Shown: positions 3,779 through 63,998, counted from the stretch's first letter. The stretch is 64,000 bases of DNA from Bilabrum cf. latius (GCA_965178125.1 OZ237758.1:248001-312000); one strand, 5' to 3'. The notes: a model not told the origin generated them from the letters alone. Numbers and translations: made by a program.

Positions 3779-3885
3779 GGCTCGTGGTGGAGGTACAACG
3801 GAGCCTGCTCCTCTTTTGCGTGCAGCCTGTTCCGGTTTTGATCGTCATCACGCCAAGAAATAGATCATGGCCGCAATTCCACAGC

Positions 3886-16415: not shown

Positions 16416-16521
16416 GATCTAGCTCTCGAGATATAATGGGCGCGCCGCGCAGTCACCGGTGGAGAGGACCGGAAGAAGTGACTGCCGCCGACGTGCAGCT
16501 CGGCATCGTCAAAAGGTCAAC

Positions 16522-18618: not shown

Positions 18619-18843
18619 GGCGCAGACCATGGGTAACAAGGGCATAATGATACAAACCAGAAGAAAGAAGAAGCTTGGGGCTCAGGGCAAGACAGCGGGG
18701 ATGGAGCAGCTGAACCACGCAAGGCACCTGCCTGATTGGTGGCACTGTGTGATGCGAGCCAGGTCGGAGCGAGCATGGCAACTCACAAGGCGCGGGGCCT
18801 AGAACAAACATGGGATCAAAGTAATTAGAACAGTGTTCTGAGT

Positions 18844-21488: not shown

Positions 21489-21672
21489 GTGAGATCGAGT
21501 GGCGGTGGATCGAGGCGTGGAGCTTGCCTGCTTGGGTGTAAGTGAGATCGAGTGGCGGTGGATCGAGGCGTGGAGCTTGCCTGCTTGGGTGTAAGTGAGA
21601 TCGAGTGGCGGTGGATCGAGGCGTGGAGCTTGCCTGCTTGGGTGTAAGTGAGATCGAGTGGCGGTGGATCGA
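21454..21672. repeat. 53-bp tandem repeat, 4 copies plus a partial, overlapping the RluA stop codon
   Basis: Unit GGATC(T/G)AGGCGTGGAGCTTGCCTGCTTGGGTGTAAGTGAGATCGAGTGGCGGT at 21454, 21507, 21560 and 21613. Confidence 0.95.
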
Positions 21673-35204: not shown

Positions 35205-35335
35205 TCTGCTCGCTCCGAGCTGCAGCGTGGAGGAGGTCTTATTGCAGAGTTTCAAATTGACGGCACGTGGAAACACGCCACAGATCTTCTGGATACGTGG
35301 TCGCGGAGGATCTTGAAGATCCGGGTCGTTCGAAA

Positions 35336-37589: not shown

Positions 37590-37959
37590 AACCGGAACCG
37601 GAAGCCTTCAAGTCGCTCAGCCTGAGCGCCGCGATGCAACACCCGGACAGCGACACTCGATGCTGACATTCACAAGCCTCGCTTCCGGCACGCCCCTTGG
37701 CCCCCTTGGCTCCTCTGCGAATGGCTGGCAGCGGCTGATATCAGAGGCTGTCCATAGCCACAGGCCTCAAGCCACTGGCAGGCAGAAGGCTTAGGGTTGG
37801 GGAACAGAAGAAAAGTTTCCCAGCGAGCGAGATGGGCAGGTGAGAGGGGGGAACACAGAAGTGTGGAGCGAGAGGGAGAAACGAATACTCGGTGCAAGCT
37901 GTGGAGGGGGGAGTGGTGCCGCCGAGATAGCCGCAACCAAAAAAGTATAAAACGAAGTC

Positions 37960-40900: not shown

Positions 40901-43900
40901 GGACGGGAGTAAAAACAGAAAAGTCGAGGGCGAGAAGCAAAAACGCGGTGCAAGCTGTGGGTGGGTGTCCCAAGACGCGGACGGGCCGCCGAGATACCGG
41001 GAGGCGGGCAAGCCGGCAAGCCGGCCAGCGGGCCAGCCCCAGCGAGCCAGACGGGTGGACGGGTGGACGGGAGTAAAAAAGAAAAGTCGAGGGCGAGAAG
41101 CAAAAACGCGGTGCAAGCTGTGCGTGGGTGTCCCAAGACGCGGACGGGCCGCCGAGATACCGGGAGGCGGGCAAGCCGGCAAGCCGGCCAGCGGGCCAGC
41201 CCCAGCGAGCCAGACGGGTGGACGGGTGGACGGGAGTAAAAACAGAAAAGTCGAGGGCGAGAAGCAAAAACGCGGTGCAAGCTGTGGGTGGGTGTCCCAA
41301 GACGCGGACGGGCCGCCGAGATACCGGGAGGCGGGCAAGCCGGCAAGCCGGCCAGCGGGCCAGCCCCAGCGAGCCAGACGGGTGGACGGGTGGACGGGAG
41401 TAAAAAAGAAAAGTCGAGGGCGAGAAGCAAAAACGCGGTGCAAGCTGTGGGTGGGTGTCCCAAGACGCGGACGGGCCGCCGAGATACCGGGAGGCGGGCC
41501 AGCCGGCAAGCCGGCCAGCGGGCCAGCCCCAGCGAGCCAGACGGGTGGACGGGTGGACGGGAGTAAAAACAGAAAGTCGAGGGCGAGAAGCAAAAACGCG
41601 GTGCAAGCTGTGGGTGGGTGTCCCAAGACGCGGACGGGCCGCCGAGATACCGGGAGGCGGGCAAGCCGGCAAGCCGGCCAGCGGGCCAGCCCCAGCGAGC
41701 CAGACGGGTGGACGGGTGGACGGGAGTAAAAACAGAAAAGTCGAGGGCGAGAAGCAAAAACGCGGTGCAAGCTGTGGGTGGGTGTCCCAAGACGCGGACG
41801 GGCCGCCGAGATACCGGGAGGCGGGCCAGCCGGCAAGCCGGCCAGCGGGCCAGCCCCAGCGAGCCAGACGGGTGGACGGGTGGACGGGAGTAAAAAAGAA
41901 AAGTCGAGGGCGAGTGGGAGAAGCAAAAACGCGGTGCAAGCTGTGGGTGGGTGTCCCAAGACGCGGACGGGCCGCCGAGATACCGGGAGGCGGGCCAGCC
42001 GGCAAGCCGGCCAGCGGGCCAGCCCCAGCGAGCCAGACGGGTGGACGGGTGGACGGGAGTAAAAAAGAAAAGTCGAGGGCGAGGGCGAGAAGCAAAAACG
42101 CGGTGCAAGCTGTGGGTGGGTGTCCCAAGACGCGGACGGGCCGCCGAGATACCGGGAGGCGGGCCAGCCGGCAAGCCGGCCAGCGGGCCAGCCCCAGCGA
42201 GCCAGACGGGTGGACGGGTGGACGGGAGTAAAAAAGAAAAGTCGAGGGCGAGAAGCAAAAACGCGGTGCAAGCTGTGCGTGGGTGTCCCAAGACGCGGAC
42301 GGGCCGCCGAGATACCGGGAGGCGGGCAAGCCGGCAAGCCGGCCAGCGGGCCAGCCCCAGCGAGCCAGACGGGTGGACGGGTGGACGGGAGTAAAAACAG
42401 AAAAGTCGAGGGCGAGAAGCAAAAACGCGGTGCAAGCTGTGGGTGGGTGTCCCAAGACGCGGACGGGCCGCCGAGATACCGGGAGGCGGGCCAGCCGGCA
42501 AGCCGGCCAGCGGGCCAGCCCCAGCGAGCCAGACGGGTGGACGGGTGGACGGGAGTAAAAAAGAAAAGTCGAGGGCGAGAAGCAAAAACGCGGTGCAAGC
42601 TGTGGGTGGGTGTCCCAAGACGCGGACGGGCCGCCGAGATACCGGGAGGCGGGCAAGCCGGCAAGCCGGCCAGCGGGCCAGCCCCAGCGAGCCAGACGGG
42701 TGGACGGGTGGACGGGAGTAAAAACAGAAAAGTCGAGGGCGAGAAGCAAAAACGCGGTGCAAGCTGTGGGTGGGTGTCCCAAGACGCGGACGGGCCGCCG
42801 AGATACCGGGAGGCGGGCAAGCCGGCAAGCCGGCCAGCGGGCCAGCCCCAGCGAGCCAGACGGGTGGACGGGTGGACGGGAGTAAAAAAGAAAAGTCGAG
42901 GGCGAGAAGCAAAAACGCGGTGCAAGCTGTGCGTGGGTGTCCCAAGACGCGGACGGGCCGCCGAGATACCGGGAGGCGGGCCAGCCGGCAAGCCGGCCAG
43001 CGGGCCAGCCCCAGCGAGCCAGACGGGTGGACGGGTGGACGGGAGTAAAAACAGAAAAGTCGAGGGCGAGAAGCAAAAACGCGGTGCAAGCTGTGGGTGG
43101 GTGTCCCAAGACGCGGACGGGCCGCCGAGATACCGGGAGGCGGGCAAGCCGGCAAGCCGGCCAGCGGGCCAGCCCCAGCGAGCCAGACGGGTGGACGGGT
43201 GGACGGGAGTAAAAAAGAAAAGTCGAGGGCGAGAAGCAAAAACGCGGTGCAAGCTGTGGGTGGGTGTCCCAAGACGCGGACGGGCCGCCGAGATACCGGG
43301 AGGCGGGCCAGCCGGCAAGCCGGCCAGCGGGCCAGCCCCAGCGAGCCAGACGGGTGGACGGGTGGACGGGAGTAAAAACAGAAAAGTCGAGGGCGAGAAG
43401 CAAAAACGCGGTGCAAGCTGTGCGTGGGTGTCCCAAGACGCGGACGGGCCGCCGAGATACCGGGAGGCGGGCAAGCCGGCAAGCCGGCCAGCGGGCCAGC
43501 CCCAGCGAGCCAGACGGGTGGACGGGTGGACGGGAGTAAAAACAGAAAAGTCGAGGGCGAGAAGCAAAAACGCGGTGCAAGCTGTGGGTGGGTGTCCCAA
43601 GACGCGGACGGGCCGCCGAGATACCGGGAGGCGGGCCAGCCGGCAAGCCGGCCAGCGGGCCAGCCCCAGCGAGCCAGACGGGTGGACGGGTGGACGGGAG
43701 TAAAAACAGAAAAGTCGAGGGCGAGAAGCAAAAACGCGGTGCAAGCTGTGGGTGGGTGTCCCAAGACGCGGACGGGCCGCCGAGATACCGGGAGGCGGGC
43801 CAGCCGGCAAGCCGGCCAGCGGGCCAGCCCCAGCGAGCCAGACGGGTGGACGGGTGGACGGGAGTAAAAACGAAAAGTCGAGGGCGAGTGGGAGAAGCAA

Positions 43901-44587
43901 AAACGCGGTGCAAGCTGTGGGTGGGTGTCCCAAGACGCGGACGGGCCGCCGAGATACCGGGAGGCGGGCCAGCCGGCAAGCCGGCCAGCGGGCCAGCCCC
44001 AGCGAGCCAGACGGGTGGACGGGTGGACGGGAGTAAAAAAGAAAAGTCGAGGGCGAGGGCGAGAAGCAAAAACGCGGTGCAAGCTGTGGGTGGGTGTCCC
44101 AAGACGCGGACGGGCCGCCGAGATACCGGGAGGCGGGCCAGCCGGCAAGCCGGCCAGCGGGCCAGCCCCAGCGAGCCAGACGGGTGGACGGGTGGACGGG
44201 AGTAAAAACAGAAAAGTCGAGGGCGAGAAGCAAAAACGCGGTGCAAGCTGTGGGTGGGTGTCCCAAGACGCGGACGGGCCGCCGAGATACCGGGAGGCGG
44301 GCAAGCCGGCAAGCCGGCCAGCGGGCCAGCCCCAGCGAGCCAGACGGGTGGACGGGTGGACGGGAGTAAAAACAGAAAAGTCGAGGGCGAGAAGCAAAAA
44401 CGCGGTGCAAGCTGTGGGTGGGTGTCCCAAGACGCGGACGGGCCGCCGAGATACCGGGAGGCGGGCAAGCCGGCAAGCCGGCCAGCGGGCCAGCCCCAGC
44501 GAGCCAGACGGGTGGACGGGTGGACGGGAGTAAAAAAGAAAAGTCGAGGGCGAGGGCGAGAAGCAAAAACGCGGTGCAAGCTGTGGG
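37960..44587. repeat. Satellite with ~161-169-bp unit, about 40 copies; each unit contains the tRNA-Leu 3' end and its oligo-T terminator
   Basis: Each unit carries AAGCAAAAACGCGGTGCAAGCTGTGGG (minus strand CCCACAGCTTGCA-CCGCG-TTTTT). The last unit runs straight into the tRNA. A degenerate copy lies near 37890. Confidence 0.97.
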
Positions 44588-44657
44588 ATTCGAACCCACG
44601 AGTACGAATACATTGCGACCTGAACACAACCCCTTAGACCAGCTCGGGCAAACTTGC
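44575..44657 (-). tRNA. trnL(CAG): tRNA-Leu (anticodon CAG)
   Basis: Acceptor stem GCAAGTT/AGCTTGC plus discriminator A. D-loop AGCTGGTCTA. Anticodon arm TTGTG-TTCAGGT-CGCAA. Long variable arm. T-arm GTGGG-TTCGAAT-CCCAC. TTTTT lies 5 nt downstream. Confidence 0.93.
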
Positions 44658-46015: not shown

Positions 46016-46527
46016 TCTGGTTCTAGTCTGCTCTCTGGGGCTCGAATCGATTCGATTCGATTCGATTCTGGGGGGGCTTGGCGCACGAGGCCCGAACGAT
46101 CCGGCCCTCGCTGGCAAGCAGTGAGAGCAGTCGCTGGTGCCGCCCTTGCGGCTAGGAAGTCCTCTGTCGGCCCATGCGTGGTACTGGGCAGGGCGTGGCT
46201 GCAGCTCCGGGTCTTGCGCGCAAGTCGAGCATCGCCGTGGAGAGCAATCGAATCCCCGAATCCGCTGGTTGCAGCTTGAAACAAGAGTTTAGCACTTGTT
46301 TGCCATCGGCACTCAATTTCTCCGTAAGATTATATGCACCCCGCAGCCAAAATGCAAGCCAGGTTTCCTTCCAGCTTGTGAGCTGTGTCTGTCACTGCCG
46401 CGCCAGCCATGCTTGGTGCGCAGCCAAGCGACTCGAACGCAAGCTCTTCTAAGTACATATGCACTATCAAATTGTACTTACGCGAAGCACTTGCTCTGTC
46501 CGCAGATATATCAACAATCGAAGCAGT

Positions 46528-48039
46528 ATGCGAGGCAGGACGATCTTGAGCGATCTTGCATCTTCGAAGCACCCATCAAGCGCCCGGACCCTTGCAGCCG
46601 TGGCAGCTGCGTTTGGTGTTATATGTGCCCCTCTTGCGAGCGCCAAGGTGACGCCTGGAGTGCCCCGCGTTCCGCTGCAGGGTTGGAACACGTGGTGCAC
46701 GCAGAACCGCTGCACGGTCGACTGGTGCACGTCTTCCGAGGTGCTGGACGTCGCGCGCACCATGAAGGACCTGGGAATGATCGAACTCGGCTGGGATTGG
46801 ATCGCGCTGGACGACTGCTGGGGCGTCCGCAACAGCGAGACGCACGAGATCGAGGGAGACCCCTCTCGCTTCCCCGAAGGCATGCCCGCGTTTATCGACA
46901 AGGTGCACGCGCTCGGCTTCAAGTTCGGGCTGTACACGGACTGGGGCCCGAACGCTTGCCACTTTCCCTTCACGGGGTCGTGGCCCTACTACGCCGAGGA
47001 CACGAGCACGTTCGCCAAGTGGGGCGTGGACATGGTGAAGCTGGACGGGTGCAACCCCCCCCCGGGGCAGGAGCCCGAGCAGCTCGCCCAGAACTTCTCG
47101 TCGGCGCTGGCCGCCACTGGGGCGCCCATCTGGATGTACTTCCACTGCTGGCACACGCAGACGTGCGCCCAGTACGGCAACTCCTTCCGGGTGTACGATG
47201 ACCACCACGACGAGTGGTCCAGCACCGCCTCCGTGGTGGACTACCTCAGGGAACACAGGCAGCCCTTCTGGGGACCGGGGCCGAGCCAGGGCTTCCCTGA
47301 CCCGGACTTTATATTCACGGGAGGGGAGGGGTGCGGGGAGCACTCCGGCCCAGGGGTGCGGTGCCCCGGGCAGAGCGAGGAGGAGTACCGCAGCGAGTTC
47401 TCTCTGTTCTCCATCGGGGGCGGGCAGCTGATCTTCGCGACGGACCCGAGGAACATGACGGACTTCATGAAGAGCGTTCTCATGAACCAGGAGATTCTGG
47501 CCGTTTTCCAGGACACGGCGCACTTCGACAACATCACCGTGCTGCCCTACCAGCCGACCTCGTCGTCCTCGTCGTCGTGCTCGGTCTCTCTGGAACAGCA
47601 GCTCTCGCACGACTCTTGCGCGCTGGGCAAGAGCTTCGGCTGCTACGACGGCCGGGCGGAGATGTACACGAGCAACGGCTGCAGGGGCGTCTTCACCTGC
47701 GACGGAGTCGAGGGCGTGACGTGCGACCAGGACGGCTCCGGGACGCACGACTGCCCCTGTGTTCCCCAGCCCACCGAGGCGTGGGCGAGGCCCCTGTCGG
47801 GCAAGCAGGAGGGCTGCGTGGCCGTGGTGCTCTACAACCCCGGGGAAGCCCCCAGCGACGTGGGTGTCGACTTTCAGCAGCTCCCCGGGGTGCGGTGGGG
47901 CCCAGGCACCAAGGCCAAGGTGCGGGACCTGTGGGCGCACCAGGACGCGGGGCAGGCCACCGGGAGCTACCTCCGGAAGGGGGTGCCGGCGCACGGCAAC
48001 GCCATGGTGACGCTGTGCGACACCGCCTCAAGTTCGTGA
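46528..48039 (+). CDS. GH27 alpha-galactosidase / alpha-N-acetylgalactosaminidase
   Basis: Motifs 'PLQGWNTW', 'IALDDCW', 'RFPEGM', 'LGFKFGLYTD', 'FAKWGVDMVKLDGC', 'FPDPDF' and C-terminal 'VRDLW'. No internal TAG; ends at TGA. Confidence 0.93.
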   Translation: MRGRTILSDLASSKHPSSARTLAAVAAAFGVICAPLASAKVTPGVPRVPLQGWNTWCTQNRCTVDWCTSSEVLDVARTMKDLGMIELGWDWIALDDCWGVRNSETHEIEGDPSRFPEGMPAFIDKVHALGFKFGLYTDWGPNACHFPFTGSWPYYAEDTSTFAKWGVDMVKLDGCNPPPGQEPEQLAQNFSSALAATGAPIWMYFHCWHTQTCAQYGNSFRVYDDHHDEWSSTASVVDYLREHRQPFWGPGPSQGFPDPDFIFTGGEGCGEHSGPGVRCPGQSEEEYRSEFSLFSIGGGQLIFATDPRNMTDFMKSVLMNQEILAVFQDTAHFDNITVLPYQPTSSSSSSCSVSLEQQLSHDSCALGKSFGCYDGRAEMYTSNGCRGVFTCDGVEGVTCDQDGSGTHDCPCVPQPTEAWARPLSGKQEGCVAVVLYNPGEAPSDVGVDFQQLPGVRWGPGTKAKVRDLWAHQDAGQATGSYLRKGVPAHGNAMVTLCDTASSS

Positions 48040-48705: not shown

Positions 48706-51700
48706 ATGTCCAGCATTGCCGAACACCACGGTCGTGCTCCCATGCTGAAGGCATCCAGCGCTATTCCCACGGGTGAGACCGACTGCGCAGCTGCGGGGGT
48801 AGGCGACCTCGTTGAGCGCCGAGAACCCGGTGATGCAGACTCTAAATTCCGTGCTGCGCGACAAGATTCTGTTTATTGTGCAACATAAATACAACTCCCG
48901 GCCTTGCAGAAGAATGCATGCCGAAAGACGGCGACGCTTCAAGTTGCGGAGCTGCTAGCGTCCTCAGCCTACACCCCGGGATTGCACCCTTCGCACCAGC
49001 GCGAAGAGACGGAACGTGCGCTCCTTTGCTGAGCGGAAAGGATTATTTTGCTTCTGCAGCGCACGCTATTCTCGGTGCCGAGCACCAGATTCTGCTTGCC
49101 GGCTGGTGGATCGATTTGGATCTGCCGCTCGTTCGCGGCTTGGAGCCTGACAAGATGCACGACTCGGAGGGCAAGTCTGGTCCAACTGCCTCGGCCACTG
49201 GTGTGCCCGGCGTGCTCACCCTCAGGCACTTGCTCCAGCAAAAGGCAGAGCAGGGCGTGCGAATCTTCGTGCTCGTGTACTGGGAAATCGCTGGAGTGGG
49301 GCTTGCAAACGACTCGACCAGCACCGTTGAAGCTCTCCGCAGCATGCACCCGAACATTCGGGCGCAGCGACATCCCGACCATGAGCGGCCCGGCGGCATC
49401 GGCATGCGCGCCCTTTGCGTGCACCACGAGAAGCTGCTGGTCATCGACGACCGCGTCGCGTTCGTGGGTGGGCTGGACCCAGCCCCCGGACGGTTCTGCC
49501 ATGCCCAGCGCGATCTGTGCGATCCAGCCAGCGTCGGGTGGCAGGGTGCAGACTACATGAACGACATGGGCATGGTCGGGTACATGCGGTGGAAGGCCGC
49601 AGCAGCCCAGCAGCAGCAATGGGAGGAGCTGCGTGCCAAGCGCGGGCTGGTCCCTACCACGAGTGGCACCAGAACCGCGACGGGATCGAGCGCTGCATCC
49701 ATCACGGAGCTGGCCGCCCTACCGACCAATGGCTCCGACATGCACGAGGCTGCGGCGAGCCTTGCGTCGGCTTCCCGTGGTCCGTCTACACCTCACGACG
49801 GGAGGATCTCAGGTGCGTCTGCTTCGGACAGGCAAGCACACGCACCTGCTGGGCCGTCTCCTCTTTCAGCCGGATCTAGAGGGTCGGCAATGGCCGGTCA
49901 GGAGGCGACGGCTGAAGGTGCAGACAAGACTGACGCGGTGACTGAAGACAATGTTCAGCTGGAGACTGCCCTGGAGAACCAAGCGGCTGAGTCTTTCTCT
50001 TGGTTCGGCTGCTGCCTGCCAGCGCCCACCAAGAAACAGCCTGGGCCACACAAATAGACCAAAGCAGCCGGAGCAGAGAAGGCCATCACGGGGTCTAAGA
50101 AGGTCAGCGCATAGAGCGTTGGGTTGGCCCAGCACGAGCCGGAGCGGGGGGCTACTTTAGGTGCGAGAGACGTCGTGCCCCGCATGCCCTGGCACGATGT
50201 GCAGCTTGCCATTCGAGGAGAAGCAGTCAAGGACGTGACCAGGCACTTTGTGGAACGGTGGGTGCATCACGCCAAAGAAGCTCTAGCGGCAGACCACGTG
50301 ACGGAGAAACCCGATGGGACGATACCAGTGGTAGACACTTCTACTAGTGTGTCTGCGGGCGCGCATGAGGGGGCCATCTCCATGGTTGCTCTGAAGGCGG
50401 CTGTCAGCGAATCCTGCCCGGCTGCATACCTCCAGCTGGTCGGAGACAAAGACGCAGCGGCACCGGATGCAGGCAATGTTGCGATCGGTGGCGCATCGTC
50501 CCACTCAGATGACACTGCCAGCAGCACGGCGTGCAGCTTGCAGGTGCTGCGTCAGGCAGGGCCGTGGAGCAACGGGCTGTCCACGCCAGACACTGGCATA
50601 GCCAGCGCGCACTGCAGCCTGATCCAGCAGTCCAAGCACTTCCTGTACCTGGAGAACTAGTTCTTCTCAAGCAGCTGCGGCGGCGACGGGGCACTGAATC
50701 GCGTGGGCCAGTGCCTGATCGATCGGGTGTCGAAGGCCATCAGGGACGGCAAGCCGTTCAAGGCGGTAGTGGTGCTGCCAGTGTACCCGGAAGGGGACTT
50801 GTGCGGGCCAGGACAGGCAAAAGCCATTGCGCACTTCTGCAAGCGGGCCGTGTCCACGAGCTCAACCTCGGTGATGGCGTCGCTGGCAAGGATGCACCCG
50901 GGCGTCAGACTCGCCGACTACATCGTGTTTCTGTCCCTGCGAGCATACGGCACGATGCCAGCCGGAGTGAGGGCAACGGAGCAGGTGTACGTGCACAGCA
51001 AGCTCCTCCTGGTCGACGACTCCCACGCACTCGTCAGCTCGGTGAACATATGTGACCGGGGGCTGCAACCCGACTACGACACGGAGATCGGCGTGCTGGT
51101 CGGCCCGCACTCGGACGGCAAGAACGGGATCGTGCGCTCTGTCATGGCAGGCACGTCCTTTGCCGCCACGGCCGCGGTCAAGACCATGCGCGAGGGGCTG
51201 TTTCGCCTGCACCTGGGCATTGGGTAGTCCACGTCGGAGGACCCCATCGATCTCACGGACCCTTGCAGCGACTCTGTCTACAAGGACCTGGTGCTCGCAT
51301 CAGCGAGACACAACACCCTCTGGTACGAGAAGACCTTCCCGGGAGCAAGGCAGTTCACAGACCCGGCGTACTGGGGTACTGTGGATGCCGAGGGGGACAC
51401 ACATGAGGCCAGTGGCCCGGTGGCAATCGTTCCAGGCCCGCACCTCGCCGCCCTCGAGGGCGTGCCATCGAGCGAGGACAGCGGTGCATGCAGGGTACCA
51501 GAGAGCCTGCTGCACCCGTTGGGCGAACGGCTGCCCACCGGCGATGCCGTGCAGCAGGAGCAAGATTCGCTACGGGCTGGGCTGGCGCGGTTCGTGGGAG
51601 GCCCTGGTGCCGGGCGGGCAGGACCAGAACACGGACAGCTGCCGCCCGACCATGCGTCTCCCATCCGCGTGCCCGCGGGCATGACCCTTGACGGGCTGGT

Positions 51701-51938
51701 GCGCGAGCACCCGATCGCGTGGGCGAGCATGCTGAGGCAGGATGTGATGAGTGCGGCGCCGAGCAGGTGCTTCGAGGCACACGTGCGGGTGGCAGCCAGC
51801 GAGAGAGAGAGCCGGGAAGGTGCGCCGGTGGGGCAGCTAGTGCTCTGGTCGGGAGCGCTGGGGCTCGGCACCGACCTGCTGGAGGGCATCGAGCGGTACC
51901 TCCCACCTGGTGTGCCCCCACAGGCAGTGCTCTTGTGA
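48706..51938 (+). CDS. Phospholipase D (two HKD motifs); predicted intron 48773-48909; 4 TAGs
   Basis: Motifs 'HHEKLLVIDD', 'PRMPWHDV', 'HFVERW', 'HFLYLEN*FFSS', 'EQVYVHSKLLLVDD' and 'DTEIGV'. TAGs at 50055, 50112, 50658 and 51225. Ends at TGA. Exon 1 is less certain. Confidence 0.9.
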
Positions 51939-52176
51939 CAACGATTATTTGGGGATTCTCCGCGTGCTTCGAATCTGTGCTTCATCTTCCTTGTCTGCCA
52001 ATGCACAAGGCTGCTCTGTAACACTCAGTTCGACGCGAATAGCACACCATTATGCACTTTATTTGTTAAAACTGATTGTTGGGATTGTCGTTCTGCCGTT
52101 GTTGGCTTGTGGCCTGTGGTAAGGTGCAGGGCTAGCAGTTGCACTTTTGTCATTTCAAACTCCGTCTGTCAACAGG

Positions 52177-55100
52177 ATGGAGCATGAAGGCATGATGCAT
52201 GCAGACGACCTGGCTTTTCTGTCTCAACTATCATACGGAGATGATATTTAGCGATGGGATGCTGAAAGCACTGAGGAGGGTCCAAATGTGGCCGTAGGCG
52301 ACGACACGGAATCAAGTGCACCTGTAGCACCACGTGCTGAGAGGCGACCGTCCGAAATGCCAGTGGGGCCCACAAATGTGCTCAAATCTCATCTGCAAGC
52401 CTGGGTATCGAGCTTTCGGCAAAGAAAGTGGGAGTGGAGGGCTGGAGTTTTGGCGGATGGACAGCGCCAGTATTTCCAAAAGCTGCGCGGCATCCACCAA
52501 TGGCATGCTTGGGTCGGAGACTTGAGGATGCGGGATCAAATGATTCGTGCAGCATGTGATCGCATGCAGCGCTACCGACTTCGGTAGTATCTGTAGCGAT
52601 GGGCGGGACGCACTCAAGACGTTCGCCGGATTCGGCGAGCCGCCGAGCACGTCTGCCTCGCTGTTTCTCCGAGCTGCAGATGTCGCCGTGCCCTGAGGCA
52701 CCTATGGACGAATCGCACTCGGCATCAGCAGCAACGCTGCAACGCCAGGGTCTCAAAGGTGTTCGCTCGCTCTGCTGCGCTCCGTCGGGGTCTGGCTACC
52801 TGGAGACGATTTGCCGCCGCTCGCCGCCCGATCCGAAGAGCCGAGCGCGCCGCCGGACCGGCGCTGATGCACCTGAAAGCTCGCTTAGCAGTCAGGAAGT
52901 GGATGCTCTCAGCAGCTGGATCAAAGCGAAGCAGGATGCTCATGCGCGTCGCGGAGTAGGCAGCCACAAGGATGCAGCTGAAGCGAGCAATGCAGCGGCT
53001 GCGAGCAAGTGCCCGGCAGAAACGGTCGCTTCGGTTCAGGGCAGAGCGCCTTGGGCAGCGGCTGGAGGTCATTCGCGCTCGAAGCGGGCTGATCCGGTGG
53101 CTTCACTGGGTCCGAGCTCGCCACACGCAGCGGTCCAAGATGGCCATCCTCCGCGTGACGAGTGCGAGGCACCAGGCCAGGAGGGCGTTTCGAACCCTGC
53201 GAGAGCACCACGGGACCAATCAGCTCGCCCGTGCGTCCGCTCGCACGGCGGAGGCGCACTGGAGACGTAGGGCGCTGACACGGGCGGTGAGGCTGTGGGC
53301 GGTGCGGGCGGCAAGCGCGCAGTAGGCCGCCATCGATGCAGGTGAGCTCCGAGTGAGGTGGAGGAGGTGGTGCCTGCACGTGCGACGAAGGCGCACGATG
53401 CGAGTGCTGGCTAGGAGCGTGGTCCGCAGCGGCCGCGCCGCACTTGCTCGCAGGCAGCTACTCCGCTGGAGGGCCCATGCGCGGCATCGCGCCGCGGAGC
53501 GATTCAACCTGAGGTGCGCCGCACTGTTCCGCAGGCGGGTGCTCCTGCACCGCTGGTACGAGGGGTGGCGAGCGGTTGCAACCGCTCGAAGAAGGCTCCG
53601 AGTCAAGCTGTTGGCGGCACGAAGCCACAGGAGGCGGAGGATCGTGCGTGCCGTGCTATTCGCATGGAGCAGGCAAGCCGTCGCGAACAGGGGGCTGCGA
53701 GGCGCCGCCAGAATGAGACGGCGGCGGCTGCTCGAGCTGGGTTTTCGGCTGATTGCTGCCCGCCAAATCCTACGGAGGCGCCGGGCTGCCGCGCTGCAAC
53801 GTGCCATCGAGGCGGGTCGCAGGGGCGCCACGCGAGCAGCGCTGAGGGCCTGGCAGCGGGTGCAGCGACGGGAGGCCGTGCTGCACGGCTCGCGCACTGC
53901 CGTGGAGCATATTCGCAGGAAAGGGTTGCTGGGCAGGTCGGTTCGTGTGTGGCTATAGAGGCTGCATCGCGCAGAGAGCCTGCAGCGCACTGAGGTAGCG
54001 GTGCAGCAGAGGCGGGCTGTGGCCGTGTCGCGAGCGGTGCTGACCCGGTGGGCATAGCTCCTGCGAATCAAGACTGCAAAACAGGAGGCGGCGCGCCGTG
54101 TGGTCGCATGGGTGCGAGCCAGTTGCGTCCTGGGTCCCGCCATGCGCACCTGGCGAAGGAAGGACGCAAGTGGGCGGCGGCAGGATGTGGCCATACGGAG
54201 AGCTGCGGGACTGTTTGCTTCGAGCCTTCGCAAGCGAAAGCTCTCGCGGGCAATTCAGTCGTGGCTGGAGGAAGCTCGGGAATCTATCCGCATCAAAGAA
54301 TCGATTCTTAGCTGCGCAGAGATGTCCGTTGAGCGCCGCTGCTGGTCGGCCCTAGCTCGGCTGAGAGGGCATGCCCTGAACAGAGCACGCACCCGTGCGC
54401 TGCAGTGGACTGCAGACTAGCATCGCAGGAGAACCTGCTAGGCAGGAGCTCTACTCAAGCTGGCCTCCCACGCTGCAGAGAGGTCCTTCCGCCGGCAGCA
54501 GCTGGAGCAGGCGTCGCGGTTGGTGGGGATGCACCTCAAGAAGCGGGCGTTTGGGAGGATGCGTCGGTTCGTCCTGCTCTTCTCCCGTCTGCAAGAGCGA
54601 CCGAAGAACATGCACAGCAGGCGACCCGGGGCGCAACCTGCTCCCAATCGACAAGACAGCCATGCGGTTGCTCTCCCTGGTTCTGCTGTCCGTCATGCGG
54701 ATCATCGGAGAGCGCCGACATAGTCCATCGCGCTGCTAGACAGGGCAATGTCCCTGCTGGGGGCAGATGACAGGTCTGGAGATCGGGAGCTGAATGCTTC
54801 CGGGCCCAGCACGACTGGCAGGGACCGGAGGTCGCCCGATCTTGGGGGTGACATGCACTGCTGGGCACCGCCCTCTCCTCCGCATCAACTCGCAGGCCAC
54901 GCGGCCCCAGCACACTCGCCGGGCTGGACGGCCCCCCCTTCCCCTCAGTCGAGCATTAGCAGACCGCGGCGACCTTCCGTCACAAGCTAGACCTCTTTGG
55001 CCAGCAGCGCAAGTCGGAGAGACCCGCCTAGAATCCCACCCTTCATGCGACGGGAGTGGCAGCAGCAGCAGCAGCAACAGCTGCGACCAAGGCGGCCATC

Positions 55101-56949
55101 CGTGGCAAGCGCCAGGACTGACTGCAGCACCAAAAGCACGCAGGCCGTGTCAGACCATCTGCAGCCTATCGTGGCTGCACTCGCGCCAAAACAAGCTCAG
55201 CATTCTAGCGACAGCCGGCACGCAGCCAGAGGATCGTTGATGCAGCCGCTTCAGCCCATACCGCCGCAGCAGCCCAGTGGGTATCAGAGTGAAGGCATTG
55301 CGCAGAAGCAGCTTCGGCGCCAGCCAACGCTCGTCCCACGCCCCCGAGATTTGGCTGGGTCTGGCAAACCTCGAAGGCAGGACCCTCGCACATCTGCTAC
55401 GGTCTCGTAGCACGCGAGCTACACGCAGGCGCGTACACCTGAGCGATCTGATCCAGCTGCCCTACCCGAGCCCTCAACGGACGCACGCACCAAGCACTAG
55501 CAAGCTGTATCCGCAATGCAGATCCATAGCGGCGCCCAGAGCTCCAACCAGCTCGCTATTTCTGCTTAGGGATGTGTGGGAGGGACCGGTGACACACCTG
55601 TGACCAGCGTATGCAACGAGGCAGCCGAAGCTAGCACTGCAGCAGCGCACACCGTTCCTGCAAGCAAGCAGGATGCGCCCGACCATCAGCAGCACCAGCA
55701 GAGCAACGAGAAGCAGCAGCGGCACTAGGCTCTTCCTGTGGAGACACCGCTATAGGAGGCAGCGAGTGCTTTTCCCTCGCCCGTCCTCGATCGAGCGGCC
55801 CAAGTCAGGCCAAGGTCTCCAGCAGGCCGTGCTGGTTTCTCAACCGGTGGCACAGGAGGATCTGCTGCAGATGACGACACGTCCGGCCCAATGGATCCGA
55901 TAACAGACGAGCCGGAGGTGAGATCGCTCGGTATTACCCCGAGCACAATAAAGCTGCCACTGCCGAGCAAGCAAGCAAAGAGACGGCCGGACTGGTCCTA
56001 CAGCATTGTGGTCGCGTCCGTGCAGCCAGCCATATCCGCCCCGGCTAGCAACGACCAGCCCAGCACCAGCGCCACCCAGCAGGCAGCCCAGGAAATTTCT
56101 GCGGTTCGCAGAGGGCAAGAACTCACTGGGTTTACCACCAGAATCAGGAAGCCCCTGTCGGTAGAGATGCAGCCGGCGGCTAGCGCTAGTCCCCGCGAAC
56201 AGAACGATGGAGCTAGCTCAGCCGGCGCAGCTCAGAACCGTGCGTCAGCACAAGCAGTGGGCGCTCAAGAGATCACACCAAGCGGGGTGCAGCCGGTGTT
56301 ACCGCAGGCCGATTCAGGCTTGGCTTCGAATGAAACTGGCGTATGGACTGCTAGGTCCGACCTTGAGCGGCTCCCCTGGATGGCAAGAGTGCCCGGTGGA
56401 GATCGTGACGGTGCGGCCAGTGTGACCAGTGCAGTATCCGGAATCAGTGGTATGTCCCTGCTAAGCGGGACCGCCTCTGTGCTACGAGCCGCCACAGGTG
56501 CGGGGAGGCAGGCAGCGGCTCAATGCAAGGCTAGCGCCAGCATAGGCGGAGTGCCATCGCCCAGCAACGAACCCCTGGCCTTCAGTTCAGGTCCTTCCGG
56601 GTCTCGCGTGGCTACCGAGGAAGTTTCACCATTGCTGCTGCAGCTGAGGCGTAGAGCGAAGTCAGCACTTGATGATGCCCATGCTGCCGAGTCGATGTGG
56701 CGAGACATGCAGGCGGAGTCAGCAAGCCGTAGCACCGCCTACTATGGCAAGTAGGGAGACTCCAGAGACATAGCTGAAGTCGCAGAAGCGGTACGTGACA
56801 CCGCAACTTCACTCAGAAGGCTGCGCGCTCGCACAGTGGTTTGGAGACACGTGGCAGATGGCCTGCGAGGCAAGCTCGGGGACAGTGCCTGGAGACTGGC
56901 ACTCGGGTAGGAGCTGTGGGCAGGGCTAGAGTAGTTTGGACTGTGTTGA
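52177..56949 (+). CDS. Large Arg/Trp-rich Sfi1-like (centrin-binding repeat) protein, ~1590 aa; 19 in-frame TAGs
   Basis: One uninterrupted frame from ATG 52177 to TGA 56947-56949 if TAG is sense. Periodic 'LxxW/FxxW' Arg-rich helices, then a low-complexity tail. Confidence 0.7.
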
Positions 56950-57050
56950 TTGGAACTTTTCATTGGTTTGCTGCGCGAAATAATGTAAATAAAGCAAAGT
57001 TTGGTACAAGTGGTGGCTCCGGCAAACCCAGCGACCAGCCTGGCCACATT

Positions 57051-60000
57051 TTACTCGAGCAATCGGCGAGCATTGACCATGGTGGCCATGATCTCCTACT
57101 CTTGCTTGGCGGCCGACTTCGCCAAGTCTACCTGCTGCCTGTACGCAGCAGCTCCAGCTCTGGTTGCTCGCAGCGCTAGCTCCCGTCTCGCCCGAACAGC
57201 CTCCGCTGCTGCCTGCCTCTCCTCGCGAGCAGACTGCACTGCTGCACGCGCCTGATCCCGAGACCGTCGCGCCTGCTCGGCCTTCCCTCCGCGGGAGCCC
57301 AGTCGGACCGCTCGTGCTGCTTGCTGGTGGAGTGCTCGAGCCTGCATTGCTTCCCGCATGCGGTGCTGCCTTGCATCCGCATCGGCCCTCGCCCTCGCCC
57401 TCGCCGTTGCAGCCAGCCGAGCTGCCTCGTCCTCGTGCGATGCAAGTACCTCTGCCTCCTTCAGCAACGTGGTAGCGCGGTCCAGCCGCTGCTACCGCCT
57501 CTCTCCCTCCTTTGACAGCAAGCTGCGTCGGACTGCATCTTGCTTGGACATTCGGACGGCCCTTGCCTTGGCCCGAGCTTCATCTAGCTCGTAGTCTCGA
57601 ACTTGGGCCGATGTAGCCGAAGCCTGGCCCTAGTCCATGTCTCGAGCGCTGGCAGGGTCATCCCACGCCGCTGCAGGCCCCCGACTACCCCTCTCGGAGC
57701 CCAGGCCTGAGGAGAGAGCCGCCTGCCTGCGTGCTGCCAGCGGACTTGCCATGATGCCCAGTCGGCCAGAGGGGCCTGCTCCCGCTGTGGCTGGCCGCAG
57801 AACGCCCGTATGCGCGCCCCCGGCACGCCTAGCCGGTCGTTTGGCGGGGCTCACCGGCGGCCTAACCGCAGTTCGAGCGCCGTGATCCTGAGTAGCTTCG
57901 ATCCCCTTCGATCCCATGGACACGTGGGAGAGGCCTCCAAGCTTCTGGGGCAGATTTGCTCCCTCGATGGAGTCTTGAATGTCCTGGACAGAGGGATCCC
58001 GGCCGAACTCCATCACCATGCTCGCTGCTCCCGGGGACCGTGTGGCAGATGCGCCTTCCACCCAGGCATGCGGGGTGTTGCTTGCGCCAGGCGCATCGTG
58101 CACCGAACCAGAGGTCTGGGATCCAAGGGCGAGGCTCGGCAGCTGCAGATGTTGCCTACCAGTGGGTGTGCTGCCACCACCGCGCCCCATGCCAGCGCCA
58201 GCGGTTTGCACGCGTCTCCCAAAGCTAGTCTTTCCGCTAGAATCATGGGCGTTGCGACGGACTTGTGCCGGAGTTCGCACTGGGGACTGGGGCGGCGGGA
58301 CGGCCGTTCCAGCCCCAAACTGGATCACCTGATCTCCGCCCGCATCTGCCCACACGTCGCGGTGGTGCCTCCGCGCCGACTGCGTCATTGACCTGTTCCC
58401 ATACCGGCCGCTACTTCGTGAAGTCAATACAGTGTCGCCAGCCGCCTCTGCCCACCTCGGGGTGGCGCTTCCTTCGGAAATGCCACTTCTGGGCGTGGGT
58501 CTCACGTGCAGCGCAGTGGCTGCAGTCGTCGCCAGGAAACCTTTCTGTGCTGCGGATCGCGCTGCAGTGGCTGCCATTTCGCCAGCTGTCATGGGCCGAC
58601 CGCCCCCACCGACCACGCCTCGCGACACAGAGCGAAGGCCCCTGTGCGAGGTGCGACCGCCGCGAGACCTTCGAGGCTCTCGCTTCGACTCGAGCGTCGA
58701 GTGACTACTGCGGCGACCCACCGGAGTGGTGGCAGGGCGCCCCTGCCCCGGGCTATTGCCACCGTAAATGATCCTCTCCATGCCCATGCCCACCCCATGC
58801 GACTGCCGCTGCGGAGTGCCCAGTTCTCTTGGGAACGGCCCGTTCCCCTGACCACGCCCCCCAACGATGGACAAAGAGATCGATCCCTGCCCAAGCCCTG
58901 CTGGCGACCTGTCCCTCGCCGTTGCACTTCTCGATAGCATGGATGACCTCGCTGGGCTGCGCTGCTGGGCCGCCCTGGGGCGTACTGTATTGGGGGACAG
59001 TCCGAGCCCAGACAACACCGCTTCTCGATCGGATTTCCGAGCGCTGCCAAGGTCTTGCATCGCCTGCTTACGCTGTGCAGCTTGCTCACATTCGGCAGAC
59101 CACCCGAAATCCAGCACGGGTGGCTTGCTTGACTCGTTCCTGCGCTCGGTATTCAGCATATCCTACCACTGAGACACAACTTCACGAGAAGTGTGTAGCC
59201 GAGCACCAGTGCCTAACGGCGCGTGCCAGGTTAGGGCGAGTAGGAGACAGGCCCGGGCCTTTGCTTCCTACAGGGTGGGGAACGTGATGGCGGCGAGTTT
59301 GAGCCCACGGCTGTGCCATGGTGGCATCATGATCTCTTTGAATTCCCGAGGTGCGGCACCTCCTTCGCCATCAGAGCTCGCACCGGCTGCCGCATCGCCA
59401 TCACTGGACGGAATCCTGGTCATGTGCCCTGGTTCTACCCATCGCACGTGGCAGCCGACCGACAGCAGCGGAATGTTGTCCACTGGCCAGCCGCACTATA
59501 CGGACGACGAGCTGGCGTACGCTGGCACGAGCCACGATCGCAGCGAGGACGATGCCCGCTGCGCCTCGCCGTCCGACACGGGTGCGCCGTGTGCAGCCGT
59601 CTTGCTCGCCCTGTCCTCGCCCTGCCTGCGCCGCCGCAGCGCCTCTGCTCGCACCCTCTGCATCTCTGCCCTGTACTGCGCTCCGCTCACCCAGTCCACG
59701 TGCCAGCCCATCCAGCGCGGTAGGCCCACACGACGGTCGATCCAAGCACGCGGCGGCGGCTCGGGATACACAAGCTACACCTTAGCGAAGTGCTTTGGCG
59801 GGAGCAGACCGTTGCAATCGGGCTGGCTTTCCAGCGGAATTTCGTCACTCTTCGAGGCATCGTCGCCTACCGACGCAGACGCTGAGAAGCACGCCTGTAG
59901 TTGGTGCTCAAGCAGCACAAAAGGTTGCCATGCACGCCATGCAGCAGCCTCGGGAGGCTCCGGCTGCCCCCACATCCGACCAGTCGCTCTAGACATGGCA

Positions 60001-63000
60001 AGGCATCGGAGAGTAGATTCGTTCACGTACAGCGTTCGCACTCCGCATCTGTCTATCTCTCTTGACAGTGCCGACGCGGCTCGCAGCATGGCAGTCCTGC
60101 GACGTCCGCGCCGGGCGCGCGCACATCGCTGCACCGCCACAACGGCTCTTCGGTCCGTGACGCGCTGAGCAGCGTTTGGCCGCAGCCGCGTCCGCGACAG
60201 ATGCGACCTGAATGCCTTCTGAATCAGCACAGCAGCAACGGCCCTGGCGGCTTGCTGGGTGGACAGCACGGGTGGGCGGGGTAGCGTGGGCCCGATCGAT
60301 AGCAGGCCGGCGGCAGCTGCCGGGTCCCTGCTCGCTGCCCTGACGATCGTGGCGTCACTGGTAGGAAGTAGCCCGCTATCTGATAGTACCAGCTTGTCGG
60401 GCGCCTGGCACACCTCGAGGAAAAGAGGCAGGCGCAGCATGAATGTTGCAAGGCATCTGGCAGAGTCAAACCGCAGGCTCCAAAGGCGAGAAGAGCCTGA
60501 GAGAACGGCAAGGCGAGAGCCGCAAAGGGGCTCCTTGGAGGTGACATCTGCCTCCTCCATATCGAACGTTCGGTAAAGGTTCCTCAGAGCGCGCGCACCC
60601 GAGGCCGAGGCCGGGTTAGGCAGGCCCTCAACCTGCTTGCTGGAGGGCGGGGCCCCCAGGTAGCCCACCAACACTGTCTCGGCAGGATCTGCCTCTTCGT
60701 CTTGCGTGCCTGCCTCTTCGCTGGCTTTCGATGCTTTGGGCAGTCCAGCCACGCGATACTACAGCGCTTCTGGCCGAATGTACCCAATGTGGGTCTGCAA
60801 ACCTTCGATGTGGTGTGAGGCCTGCAGCTTCCCACCCCTCTGACCCACAAGCAGCGGCATGGTCTGCAGCGCCGACTCCCGACCGTGAATGCTGTTGCGT
60901 CGCGCGGCCGATGCGATTCCCGCCACGGAGCTCCTTCCGTCCCTGGCTAGCATTCGATCTTGCTCTAGGATCCGCTCCCAGTGCTTCTGCTCGTCCTCGT
61001 CAATAGACAGGTGCGTGTCCGATGCCACCCACGCGAGTGCGGCAGCAGCGCCAATGGCTCCGGAGTATATCTGTGCGTGCGATCGCGTGGGATGTCCGCA
61101 TCGCTTCTTGAGGTGCTCTGTGCGCCGCCTGAGGGCAGCAGTAGCCCCATACCACTGGTTTGCAGGTCGTATGCCGGGAAGTGCGCCACCAGGCGTCCAG
61201 GAGATGCCTGCAGCAGCGGCCGCGGCATGAAGGTGTGAGGGCCGCGAGCCTTTGTGGACGTGTATCCGGTGCAAGATGAGCCTATGCCTGTCCTGCGTGC
61301 GCATAGGCTTGGTAATGTGCATTGCCTCTCGAATGGCGCACCTCGTGATTTCCCAGGCTAGATCTGACTGCATCGAATGCTTCACCATGCGACTGACGTT
61401 TGGATGGTATGCGACCCAGTCGGCTGCGCGCAGACCCGCCGGCACGCTACCTCCCCTGGAACCTACATTGGTCTATGTCAGGCGCATGTCTCGCAGCAGC
61501 GATCGCATCCGCACCGCAGACAGCTGCCTCTCAAGCTGAAGCGCTCCGCCAGTGGGCGCCCTGTGGCCCTGGCATCCCGTTTGGTGCGCCACCCGAGACA
61601 CCTCGGGACACGCCCCGCCGAATGGGTCAGCCTCTTGCCAGCGGCCACGTTTCTTCTTTCTCCTCTTTCTCCGCTTCGATTTAGACTTGCCCGTGGAAGG
61701 AACAGCAAACGCCGCGAACCCAGTGCGCTTCGAAGCCGCCTTGCGAGTCACGCTGGCCCGTCGCCTCTCGAGCTCTTCCTGCTTGAAGTCCCTGCCCTCG
61801 TCCGATGGGCCCTCCTCTGTGTCGAACTCGGCGCGCTGGATCCTAGTGGTGTCCCACCCTCGGATCGTAACGCACGTCGGCGCAAGTCTCACGGGAAGCA
61901 CGCTCGCCTCGTGGACCCGCTCGGCCTCATCGCGCACAGACCCGCTCTGTCGCATCAGCTCGTGAGCCACTGCCTTCCAGCCCTTCCCCGCCAGCTTCGT
62001 GCGGCTTGCGTCATCCGTGGTATCTCTCGCTGCCTTGTCTGGCTGCTTTGGGGAGGTAGCAGAAGCAGCTGCCGTCAGAAATGCACCCTCTCCCTGCCCC
62101 TGCCCTTGCTATCGACCAAGCTGCGGAGTGCGCGGCGATGTCTGCAAGGAACGCGGTGATACAGACCCAGGCGATACCATAGCGCCTCGCCTCACTTTCA
62201 CCGGCTGCCTCGGTGCGACCTGGGCTCTGCACGAGCACGCGGCAGCACTGATAGCGGCCGCTACCCACGCGGGATGCCCGGGCAGGAAGCACATGTACCT
62301 CGATTTATGGCTACTACTGGCGGAGCCCGCACCACCCGTTGGCCCACTGGAGCCAGGAGCAGATCCACCTGCTAGCTGCGCCCCCGATTCCACCCCCATC
62401 ACAGAGTATGCCATCCGCTCGACCCCGATGGGCTGTCTCGAAGCCTGCCTCTCGATAGCCGCTTCGAGGATGCTGACCCTCGCAGACCACTGTCGCCAAC
62501 ACCCCTGGATGGTGGCCGCAGCTCCGTGCTTACGACGGTTGCGCGTGCGACGGATCCACATCCGCTGGACCAGGGTGGCTGCCTCGTACTCGCGTCGCTG
62601 GTAGTGCGACAGTGCCAGCATGGCCTCATCTCCGTCGTATACCTGGGAGAGAGAGGACCGGCGGGATCGAGCGCTGGGTCTCGGCTAGATGGACTTCATG
62701 ACGTCCTGCAGCTCTCTCTCTAGCGCCACCGCCTTATCTTCATCATCCGAATCGAGATCTTTGTCGTAGCGCGCGTCAACACCGCCCTCCTCGGTGCGCA
62801 CGTCCTGCATCATTTGGTCCAGCGCCGCCATGGCCTCCTCCGCTTCTTCCGCCGCCTCGCCGCCCCGCTCCATCTTTGCCTCCAAAAAGGACCGCTAGGC
62901 CGCCAGGCGATTCTTCGTTGCGATCATGGACTCCTTGCGCTTGAGCAAGGCGTCCTTGCGCGCGAGCGCCGCCAGCTGCGACTGCGAGATCCCAGCGGCG

Positions 63001-63998
63001 GCCTCCTCGAAGGCGGCGAGAGCGTGGGGGGACGAGGAGCGCCCCGCCCTGGGGCTGGACTCGGACCCGCTGGACAGCAGGCTGCGAGGGGAGGAGCGCC
63101 CATCCCTAGAATCCCCTGCCACGGCTAGGTCGGGCAGCTTGGGCCTCTACGCATCGTGGCCGGTTGGCGACGCGGCTGTGGCCGGGCGGACGCTCTGGAA
63201 CGACTGCTCGTCTCGATCGCTCGTCAATCCTCGCCCCTCCACCGTCTTGGGGCGCCCTGACAAAGCCGAGGATCGTCCACGAGCGGGCGACCTGGTCGCG
63301 TTGTCCCCGGATGGAGTCCCCCCGACCATCCTTGGCGTGGTCGTTCGCTTTGGCTGCAGCTTTGGGGCGCCTCGGAGCAGCCAACCCGAGAGGGAGGCGG
63401 TAGTTTTTCTCCTCCACAGCCACACCTTTGCCACTGCCTGGACTGCTCGCACAACCGCGTCAATGTTGTGCAACCTCGGCTGGCTGCCCCGCCGACCGGT
63501 TCCACCGGCCATCATGGATAGCTTGTGGGACCGATTGAGTCTCGAGCTGCGACCTCCTCTGCTGCCTCGGCTCTTGCCCATGGAGGACGTGGGCGACGAG
63601 GGGGGCTCCGGAATAGAGACGCTGTCTTTCGCAAGCCGCAGCACATCGCTGTCCTGCCCACGCCTCTCTTTCATCGTCGGGGTGGGTGGCGGCGCCGGCG
63701 AGCCGCCGCGGGAGCTGCCGTCTGCACTCAGCCCCGACTCGTGGTACCGTTTCAGCGCTGCCAGGAAGGGGCTGGAAGGGCGGCCGGTCCCGTCGTCGGC
63801 TTCGAGAACGCGACCGCCTGCAGCGTGCACCGCAGCGACCAGAACCCTGACGGCTGACGGTGTGCTGTCGCTCAACCGAGACCCCACCCCGCTGCCTCCG
63901 TGGATGCCCGTGTGCAGCTGAACGGCTGCCTGTCGCAGCCGGCCGTTCACAAAGCGCCGCACCTCTTCGGCTGGCATCGTTGCAATGCGATGCATGCG
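57051..63998 (-). CDS. Very large IQ-motif/coiled-coil protein, probably 5'-partial, ~2315 codons in window; 13 in-frame TAGs; ends at TAA
   Basis: Eleven listed ORF fragments lie in one frame, separated only by TAG. IQ-like motifs 'AATLVQRMWIRR', 'AATIQGCWRQ' and 'AAVLIQKAFRSH'. TAA at 57051-57053. Confidence 0.72.

Follow-up and report, generated by a model that had tools for sequence, protein, structure and literature searches.

The stretch of DNA analysed here, a 64-kb window (64,000 nucleotides) of the Bilabrum cf. latius assembly (GCA_965178125.1, OZ237758.1:248001-312000), closes with two giant convergent genes whose reading frames contain many TAG codons and no internal TAA, and it is the meaning of these two codons, in this gene pair and in the other genes of the window, that concerns us. 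The GC (guanine plus cytosine) content ranges from 57 to 72%, with 62% overall, and the window reads as compact, intron-poor, GC-rich eukaryotic nuclear DNA. The gene list was made under translation of TAG as glutamine, and all positions are counted from the first letter of the window.

The two giant convergent genes

The plus-strand member of the pair runs from an ATG at 52177 to a TGA at 56947-56949. The minus-strand member (57051-63998) has its 5' end outside the window and a TAA at 57051-57053 as its first stop other than TAG; both genes are intronless. An earlier note on this DNA had reported 32 TAGs, many CAAs and no internal TAA in the two genes, and had placed the end of the minus-strand gene, with the last residues RRLLE, at a TAA at 57051. 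Both observations were reproduced. The plus-strand open reading frame (ORF; 1,600 codons when counted from 52147) contains 19 TAG, 25 CAA and no TAA in frame, and the minus-strand ORF (2,315 codons) contains 13 TAG, 19 CAA and no internal TAA, which together make 32 TAG, 44 CAA and no TAA over 3,915 codons.

Neither protein was assigned to a family by Pfam, the only signal being a weak IQ motif in the minus-strand protein, and both are low in complexity. The N-terminal half of the plus-strand protein (52400-54600) carries arginine-rich repeats with a conserved tryptophan, which we take to resemble the centrin-binding repeats of Sfi1, with no Pfam match to them. The lack of a family and the low complexity would suit the idea that ORFs with internal TAG are not translated as read, being pseudogenes or assembly errors, or that their UAG is edited to CAG in the transcript. 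We give this idea almost no credence. ORFs of 1,600 and 2,315 codons without a single TGA or TAA argue against it, each of the off-frames of these two genes holding 22-34 TGA, and further evidence of this kind comes from homologues and transcripts (below).

The genes are separated by a spacer of 101 bp (56950-57050) with 46.5% GC, the coding sequence on either side having 59-66%. Beyond the TAA of the minus-strand gene the next in-frame TGA is found 177 codons further on, at 56520-56522, which is 430 nt inside the opposite gene. Reading through this TAA would therefore cross the AT-rich spacer and overlap the opposite gene, as had been claimed.

In-frame TAG and TAA codons

Taken alone, the absence of TAA from the two giant genes is only moderately significant, because TAA is rare in their off-frames too (11 in 7,830 codons). 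At the off-frame rate about 5.5 TAA would be expected (P about 0.004 for none); from the CAA share of 22% and the 32 TAG, the probability of finding no TAA is about 3.5e-4. The count was extended to 18 ORF segments comprising 13,766 in-frame codons, which contain 80 TAG, 110 CAA, 476 CAG and no TAA, the two off-frames having 9 and 37 TAA; this count is circular in that the ORFs concerned were bounded by TAA. The A-ending share of the CAR, GAR, AAR and TTR codons (R being A or G) is 12.5-25.6%, from which 11-27 TAA would be expected (P for none between 2e-5 and 1e-10). To escape the circularity, ORFs were called again with TGA as the sole stop. In these TGA-only ORFs the in-frame TAA are confined to the edges, where each of them precedes the start (5' untranslated region, UTR), lies within an intron or is the first stop. 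One of them, at 46450-46452, sits within the intron of the alpha-galactosidase gene (46324-46505). In the 12.1 kb of DNA outside ORFs and satellites, TAA occurs 8.7 times and TAG 7.9 times per kb per strand, and TAA is thus not mutationally missing from the genome.

These figures bear on the possibility that the organism uses NCBI table 6, in which UAA and UAG both encode glutamine and UGA is the sole stop, and merely avoids UAA through its high GC content. The rarity of TAA in all coding frames, off-frames included, would agree with such a code. So would the predominance of UGA, which is the terminator at 10 of 14 gene ends, and the case of a zinc-finger gene ending at TAA, whose protein would become only two residues longer. 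Against these points stand the complete lack of TAA where 11-27 were expected, the restriction of in-frame TAA to the edges of TGA-bounded ORFs, and the minus-strand giant gene, which read-through would lengthen by 177 codons running antisense to its neighbour, although the transcript-like contig ends after 70 nt. With 80 TAG and no TAA in frame, table 6 combined with a GC bias was rejected, and we consider it very improbable. The decoupling of UAA from UAG, put forward in the earlier note, is accordingly sustained by the 80 TAG against no TAA, by the position of TAA at ORF edges only, and by the transcript-like contig of the minus-strand giant gene, which ends 70 nt past the TAA with no TGA between.

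TAG occurs in frame in nearly every gene of the window, and its use is uneven. There is none in the alpha-galactosidase gene, which is well covered, or in the zinc-finger gene, and only one in the 1,259 codons of an exportin-T-like gene (2-3778). TAG is denser in lineage-specific genes, with eight in the 741 codons of a hypothetical gene (16396-18618, plus strand) and 32 in the 3,915 codons of the giant pair.

Glutamine at TAG positions in homologues

A diverged second copy of several window genes is present in databases (71-93% protein identity; P0001, P0038, P0039 and P0041), and it comes either from a sister species sampled together with this organism or from a second subgenome. P0001 is 71% identical to the product of a phospholipase D (PLD) gene (48846-51938, plus strand), P0038 is 81% identical to the plus-strand giant protein, and P0039 is 93% identical to the product of a GH5-like gene (9760-12606, plus strand). 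Where window TAGs were compared with these near relatives, glutamine was found at three of three sites, all on the plus strand: PLD codon 404 (50055-50057) in P0001, and GH5-like residues 117 (10108-10110) and 301 (10660-10662) in P0039. Another TAG of the PLD gene, codon 605 (50658-50660, plus strand), occupies the invariant glutamine of an 'ENQFF' motif and aligns with the glutamine that human PLD1 (6u8z) and P0004 have in 'IENQFF'. TAG codons inside conserved enzymes, among them this one in a motif of the PLD catalytic domain, speak against the view that the ORFs are untranslated as read, and so does the fragment P0038 of the relative, which breaks at the same TAG site, ending directly before codon 1536 of the plus-strand giant gene (56752-56754, plus strand). 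P0001 and P0039 terminate at ordinary glutamine codons of the window. In C-terminal searches with the giant proteins, the window's own fragment P0037 was seen to stop just before TAG 2301.

Other TAG columns fall in less conserved positions. Seven TAG columns of the GH5-like protein are gapped or variable in distant homologues (61 aligned of 150 listed), and the TAG of a gene related to diacylglycerol and sphingosine kinases (DAGK/SphK) lies in a variable column of its PDB match. The PDB searches gave a GH55-like match without a usable TAG column and no match for the second exon of a cellulase gene. The base that follows an internal TAG (the +4 base) is A in 13 cases, C in 23, G in 25 and T in 11 (n=72), similar to what is found after CAG. 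As judged from the alignments with near relatives and the PLD motif, UAG stands for glutamine in the bodies of the genes.

TAG in transcript-like contigs

Contigs from public runs of three other studies were aligned with the window. The four runs compared with it have near-identical sequence, and long contig pieces from the runs of the three studies match it with no differences and keep the TAGs. Contigs of one run, X5, cover 52467-56976 of the plus-strand giant gene and 56981-61433 and 61404-63554 of the minus-strand giant gene, again with no differences. They contain 31 of the 32 TAGs of the pair unchanged, which excludes editing of UAG to CAG. That contigs from three studies retain the TAGs with no differences, one of these contigs being spliced, likewise counts against pseudogenes and assembly errors.

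The 182-nt GT..AG intron at 46324-46505, which belongs to the alpha-galactosidase gene (46453-48039), is spliced out in one contig each of X5 and X7 and is present in the DNA run X6. The depth of X5 varies between 0 and 90 from gene to gene, and its contigs stop at gene borders. Because of the removal of the intron, the varying depth and the contig ends at gene borders, X5 and X7 were treated as complementary DNA. Over the PLD region 50200-51800, runs X5, X7 and X8, which also contain the window sequence, include a differently spliced or diverged contig, in which the second copy of the PLD gene appears.

TAA and TGA at gene ends

When gene ends are placed at the first stop other than TAG, TGA is found at 10 of 14 and TAA at four of 14, and none of the four TAA-ended genes encodes a protein of conserved length. 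It had been noted previously that, besides the minus-strand giant gene, genes for an RluA-type pseudouridine synthase, a zinc-finger protein and the hypothetical protein first stop at TAA. This is true of all three, the TAA of the RluA gene being a doubtful terminator.

The zinc-finger gene ends at a TAA at 12683-12685 (minus strand), followed by one codon and then an in-frame TGA. The hypothetical gene ends at a TAA at 18616-18618 (plus strand), with a TAG 13 codons before it, another TAA six codons after it and a TGA at 18733-18735. The 3' ORF of the RluA gene, which is split into two ORFs, ends at a TAA at 21486-21488 (plus strand), nine codons after a TAG. A 53-bp tandem repeat (21453-21672; 4.2 copies, 99% matches) starts within the last codons of this gene; each unit contains a GTAAGT-like motif, and the near-end TAG of the gene is GAG in the other copies.

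One of the four, the minus-strand giant gene, is backed by a contig end. Its X5 sequence continues for 70 nt beyond the TAA, as far as 56981, without an in-frame TGA, and the X5 contig of the plus-strand gene stops at 56976, 27 nt past the TGA. A contig of the DNA run X6 spans the spacer in which the X5 contigs break. Since the X5 contig ends 70 nt beyond the TAA, the next TGA is 177 codons away and X6 bridges the interval, the minus-strand giant protein should end at or before this TAA. Depending on the stop chosen, the 3' UTRs of the convergent pair measure 27-115 nt; for the alpha-galactosidase gene, contig ends lie about 200-255 nt past the stop. Four genes thus have UAA as a putative terminator, and at most three of them are firm.

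Accumulation of TAG before the stops

Within 15 codons of the stop, the 14 gene ends have 12 glutamine-type codons between them. Seven of these are TAG, whose overall share is 12% (permutation P of 9e-5 over codons and 0.006 over genes, in a post hoc test on 14 genes). The accumulation is present at five of the 14 ends. Besides those of the hypothetical and RluA genes, the near-end TAGs are those of the plus-strand giant gene (56908-56910 and 56932-56934, plus strand; 13 and five codons before the TGA), the minus-strand giant gene (57096-57098, minus strand; 15 codons before the TAA) and a GH5 cellulase gene, whose end (33068-33085, plus strand) consists of TAG, one codon, TAG, two codons and TGA, the TAGs being five and three codons before the stop. 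Most simply, these codons are former TAG terminators that are now read through. Translation of genes with TAG near their end would then continue into the one-time 3' UTR until it met another stop, and former TAG terminators at gene ends would imply that the reassignment passed through an ambiguous stage.

A second interpretation gives UAG two meanings, glutamine inside genes and terminator near the 3' end of the messenger RNA, with UAA and UGA as pure stops. Five of the 14 genes would then end at TAG, their later TGA or TAA would lie in the 3' UTR, and eRF1 would still recognise UAG; the two codons would be decoupled in this case too. Several observations are in keeping with this. The enrichment itself, seven of 12 codons with the P values given above, is one of them. 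A second is the spacing between a near-end TAG and the next stop-like codon (2-15 codons), which matches the interval of 2-25 codons that, in seven of eight other genes, separates the terminal TGA or TAA from the following in-frame stop-like codon. The 50 codons preceding the putative true terminators contain one TAG where about 3.7 would be expected, a deficit that is not significant. The short 3' UTRs of the convergent pair (27-115 nt) would also be compatible with a terminator recognised by its nearness to the messenger end. Lastly, the codon-usage score per codon is 0.11 in the tails beyond the near-end TAGs, a value between those of the coding sequence before stops (0.21) and the 3' flank after them (-0.15), as computed with a training set partly out of frame (about 870 of 12,325 codons).

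The same pattern would, however, be produced by read-through of former TAG terminators, and it was noticed post hoc in only 14 genes. The tail of the minus-strand giant gene scores as coding (3.07 over 14 codons) and prolongs a coiled-coil-like stretch, no special +4 context is seen at internal TAGs, and the codon-usage score suffers from the out-of-frame part of its training set. In the described lineages that have reassigned UAG alone, no UAG terminators were observed (PMC5304391). The C-terminal searches with the giant proteins do not help to choose, as P0037 and P0038 stop before the tails that follow the near-end TAGs. We regard the double meaning of UAG as possible, with the odds clearly on the other side. 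A broader form of it, in which UAG is in the middle of its reassignment and belongs to a context-dependent code of a single codon that terminates about one third of the genes and is shared with the lineage or subgenome of 71-93% identity, is also tentative and rather unlikely. Neither reading of the accumulation makes UAA a sense codon.

The proposed code

We propose, with a probability of roughly 0.8 (0.82), that UAG is read as glutamine in this genome and that UAA and UGA are stops, UAA not being a sense codon and ending genes alongside the much commoner UGA. From what is established about decoding, such a code would employ a glutamine tRNA whose anticodon, CUA, differs from CUG by a single base and would read UAG while being unable to pair with UAA. 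It would also be expected to go with an eRF1 whose recognition of UAG is weakened or lost.

Several points weigh against this proposal and should be kept in view. The presence of the TAG accumulation at five of 14 ends puts the loss of UAG recognition by eRF1 in question, and UAG that still terminated near the 3' end would contradict such a loss. Three of the four TAA ends have a TAG upstream (hypothetical gene, 13 codons; RluA gene, nine; minus-strand giant gene, 15), and those three TAAs would be untranslated if TAG still terminates at near-end positions. The end of the zinc-finger gene cannot tell the codes apart, because a TGA lies two codons past the TAA, and the TAA of the RluA gene, within the GTAAGT-like motif of the repeat, may be no terminator at all. 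The sample comprises 64 kb and 14 gene ends, a set without ribosomal proteins or histones. With respect to the homologues, the fragment ends of P0001, P0038 and P0039 may be contig ends and not stops; TAG at variable columns corresponds to leucine in human SphK1 and to aspartate in human PLD1 (PLD codon 794), and GH5-like residue 301, glutamine in the near relative, is valine in 52 of 61 distant homologues. As for the transcripts, X5 carries the label 'RNA? (probably DNA)', the kinds assigned to X5, X7 and X8 are guesses, the listing for 52001-62000 names no RNA run, and contig ends indicate poly(A) sites only weakly, nine unmatched letters being present beyond 56981.

Other genes and repeats of the window

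Within the 64-kb window a single tRNA gene was found, a genuine tRNA-Leu(CAG) at 44575-44657 (minus strand; 46.2 bits) with a run of T after it; the anticodons CUA and UUA are not represented. The tRNA-Leu(CAG) was missed by a whole-window Rfam scan at the gathering threshold and was found by a permissive scan and by ARAGORN; it adjoins the end of one of two satellite arrays. The first array (23599-28563) has a unit of 123/247 bp and the second (37955-44587), next to the tRNA gene, a unit of 164/327 bp; each has 40 copies with 96-97% matches and a strong AT skew. The second array is open in each of the three frames, so that lists of ORFs there are meaningless.

The remaining genes are of several kinds. 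A GH55-like two-domain glucanase (3454-7938, plus strand) appears as three overlapping ORFs in different frames, with PF12708 found twice and a PDB match to 5m5z. These ORFs are probably one gene with two introns, and the TGAs that close the first two would for that reason not be gene ends. The zinc-finger gene (12683-13939, minus strand) encodes nine C2H2 fingers, ends at TAA and has no TAG; it is built on an 87-bp tandem array (12701-13441, minus strand) of 8.5 copies with 93% matches, one finger per unit. The cellulase gene consists of two ORFs. In an ORF at 33570-35384 (minus strand), the last 150 residues or so (33570-34100) are rich in arginine, cysteine and proline and look out of frame; the real 3' end is probably in another frame or past an intron, and the TGA end is doubtful. 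The window also holds a gene for a Ca3427-like binding protein, the DAGK/sphingosine-kinase-like gene and several lineage-specific genes.

Searches with two of the enzymes gave mixed results. The best named matches of the PLD protein have 27-36% identity and are scattered over animals, streptophytes, fungi, amoebozoans and oomycetes. A scan of Joint Genome Institute (JGI) metagenomes with this protein returned 37 loci and no close relative: near-full-length matches did not exceed 37% identity, and those of 43-68% were confined to short conserved segments. The neighbours of the alpha-galactosidase in a protein atlas are eukaryotic and mixed. An affinity to aphelids, suggested by the fungus-like GH55-like, GH5 and Ca3427-like genes, is unsupported, and no annotated Amoeboaphelidium protein was among the named matches of one named-database search made with the PLD protein.

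Comparison with known codes

A code with UAG for glutamine and UAA and UGA as stops is NCBI table 15. This kind of code has been described before, and it is the setting that differs, namely a GC-rich, non-ciliate and UGA-dominant genome. In the literature searched, which covered subscription journals only in part, there was no GC-rich non-ciliate in which UAG alone is assigned to glutamine.

The closest parallel outside the ciliates is the fornicate Iotanema spirale, in which UAG is glutamine, UAA and UGA are stops and a tRNA-Gln(CUA) is predicted; its terminators are 104 UAA and 15 UGA, and no UAG was observed near bona fide gene ends (PMC5304391). Iotanema resembles the present case in the use of UAG for glutamine in gene bodies, in never using UAA as sense and in being no ciliate. 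It differs in that UAA predominates there, whereas here UGA ends 10 of 14 genes and TAA four, and TAG is piled up before the stops.

The same codon table, with UAG and UAA decoupled, is used by Protocruzia tuzeti, Hartmannula sinica and Trochilia petrani (PMC11687900). These are ciliates; the GC content of the ciliates with UAG for glutamine is 27-54%, and 86.9-98.3% of the genes of phyllopharyngeans end with UAA (PMC11687900). Here, by contrast, UAA is a minor stop at 62% GC. The authors of that report argue that heavy use of UAA is what fixes it as a stop (PMC11687900). Such an argument fails to explain why UAA is unassigned in our window, because UAA is a rare stop here and GC is 62%.

In other lineages UAG alone has been reassigned, with UAA kept as a stop, as here, and with a different amino acid. 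UAG is leucine in the rhizarian exLh, in which UAA accounts for 56 of 71 terminators (PMC5304391), and in other phyllopharyngeans, and it is serine in Scotinosphaera (PMC11687900); exLh and Scotinosphaera thus differ from the present case in having leucine or serine in place of glutamine. The exceptions to coupled reassignment named in the earlier note (Iotanema, a rhizarian and some ciliates) are indeed known, and the list was incomplete, since Protocruzia tuzeti, Hartmannula and Trochilia as well as Scotinosphaera belong to it (PMC11687900).

Reassignment of both UAA and UAG to glutamine is found in many ciliates, some ulvophytes, Hexamita, oxymonads and Amoeboaphelidium protococcarum (PMC11687900, PMC5304391). 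Lineages with table 6 share UAG as glutamine with our window and differ from it by their use of UAA, of which there is none in frame among 13,766 codons here. Context-dependent codes are known from Condylostoma magnum, karyorelicts and Blastocrithidia (PMC5304391). Codes of the Condylostoma type would resemble the present one in the possible use of one codon both as sense and as stop and perhaps in short 3' UTRs. In those codes the ambiguous codons include UAA and/or UGA and are depleted before real stops, whereas here UAG alone would be involved and the case stands on one post hoc statistic.

Implications

UAG and UAA nearly always change meaning together. Each lineage that splits them therefore tests whether this coupling is mechanistic, owing to wobble of a UUA anticodon and to an eRF1 that recognises both codons, or historical. 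The lineages described so far in which UAG alone is reassigned all have UAA as their principal stop. A UAA that is a minor stop and still not a sense codon in a GC-rich genome favours an explanation by the specificity of a tRNA(CUA) over the argument from heavy use of UAA. In practical terms, an annotation of this genome under the standard code would be fragmented at TAG; in databases, proteins of this genome and of its relative break off at TAG, as P0037 and P0038 do. The accumulation of TAG at gene ends could be a trace of the change itself, either as terminators now read into former UTRs or as a codon that is still ambiguous. If this is true, the 'ambiguous intermediate' route of codon reassignment would be open to testing in this organism, for which public DNA and transcript-like runs already exist.

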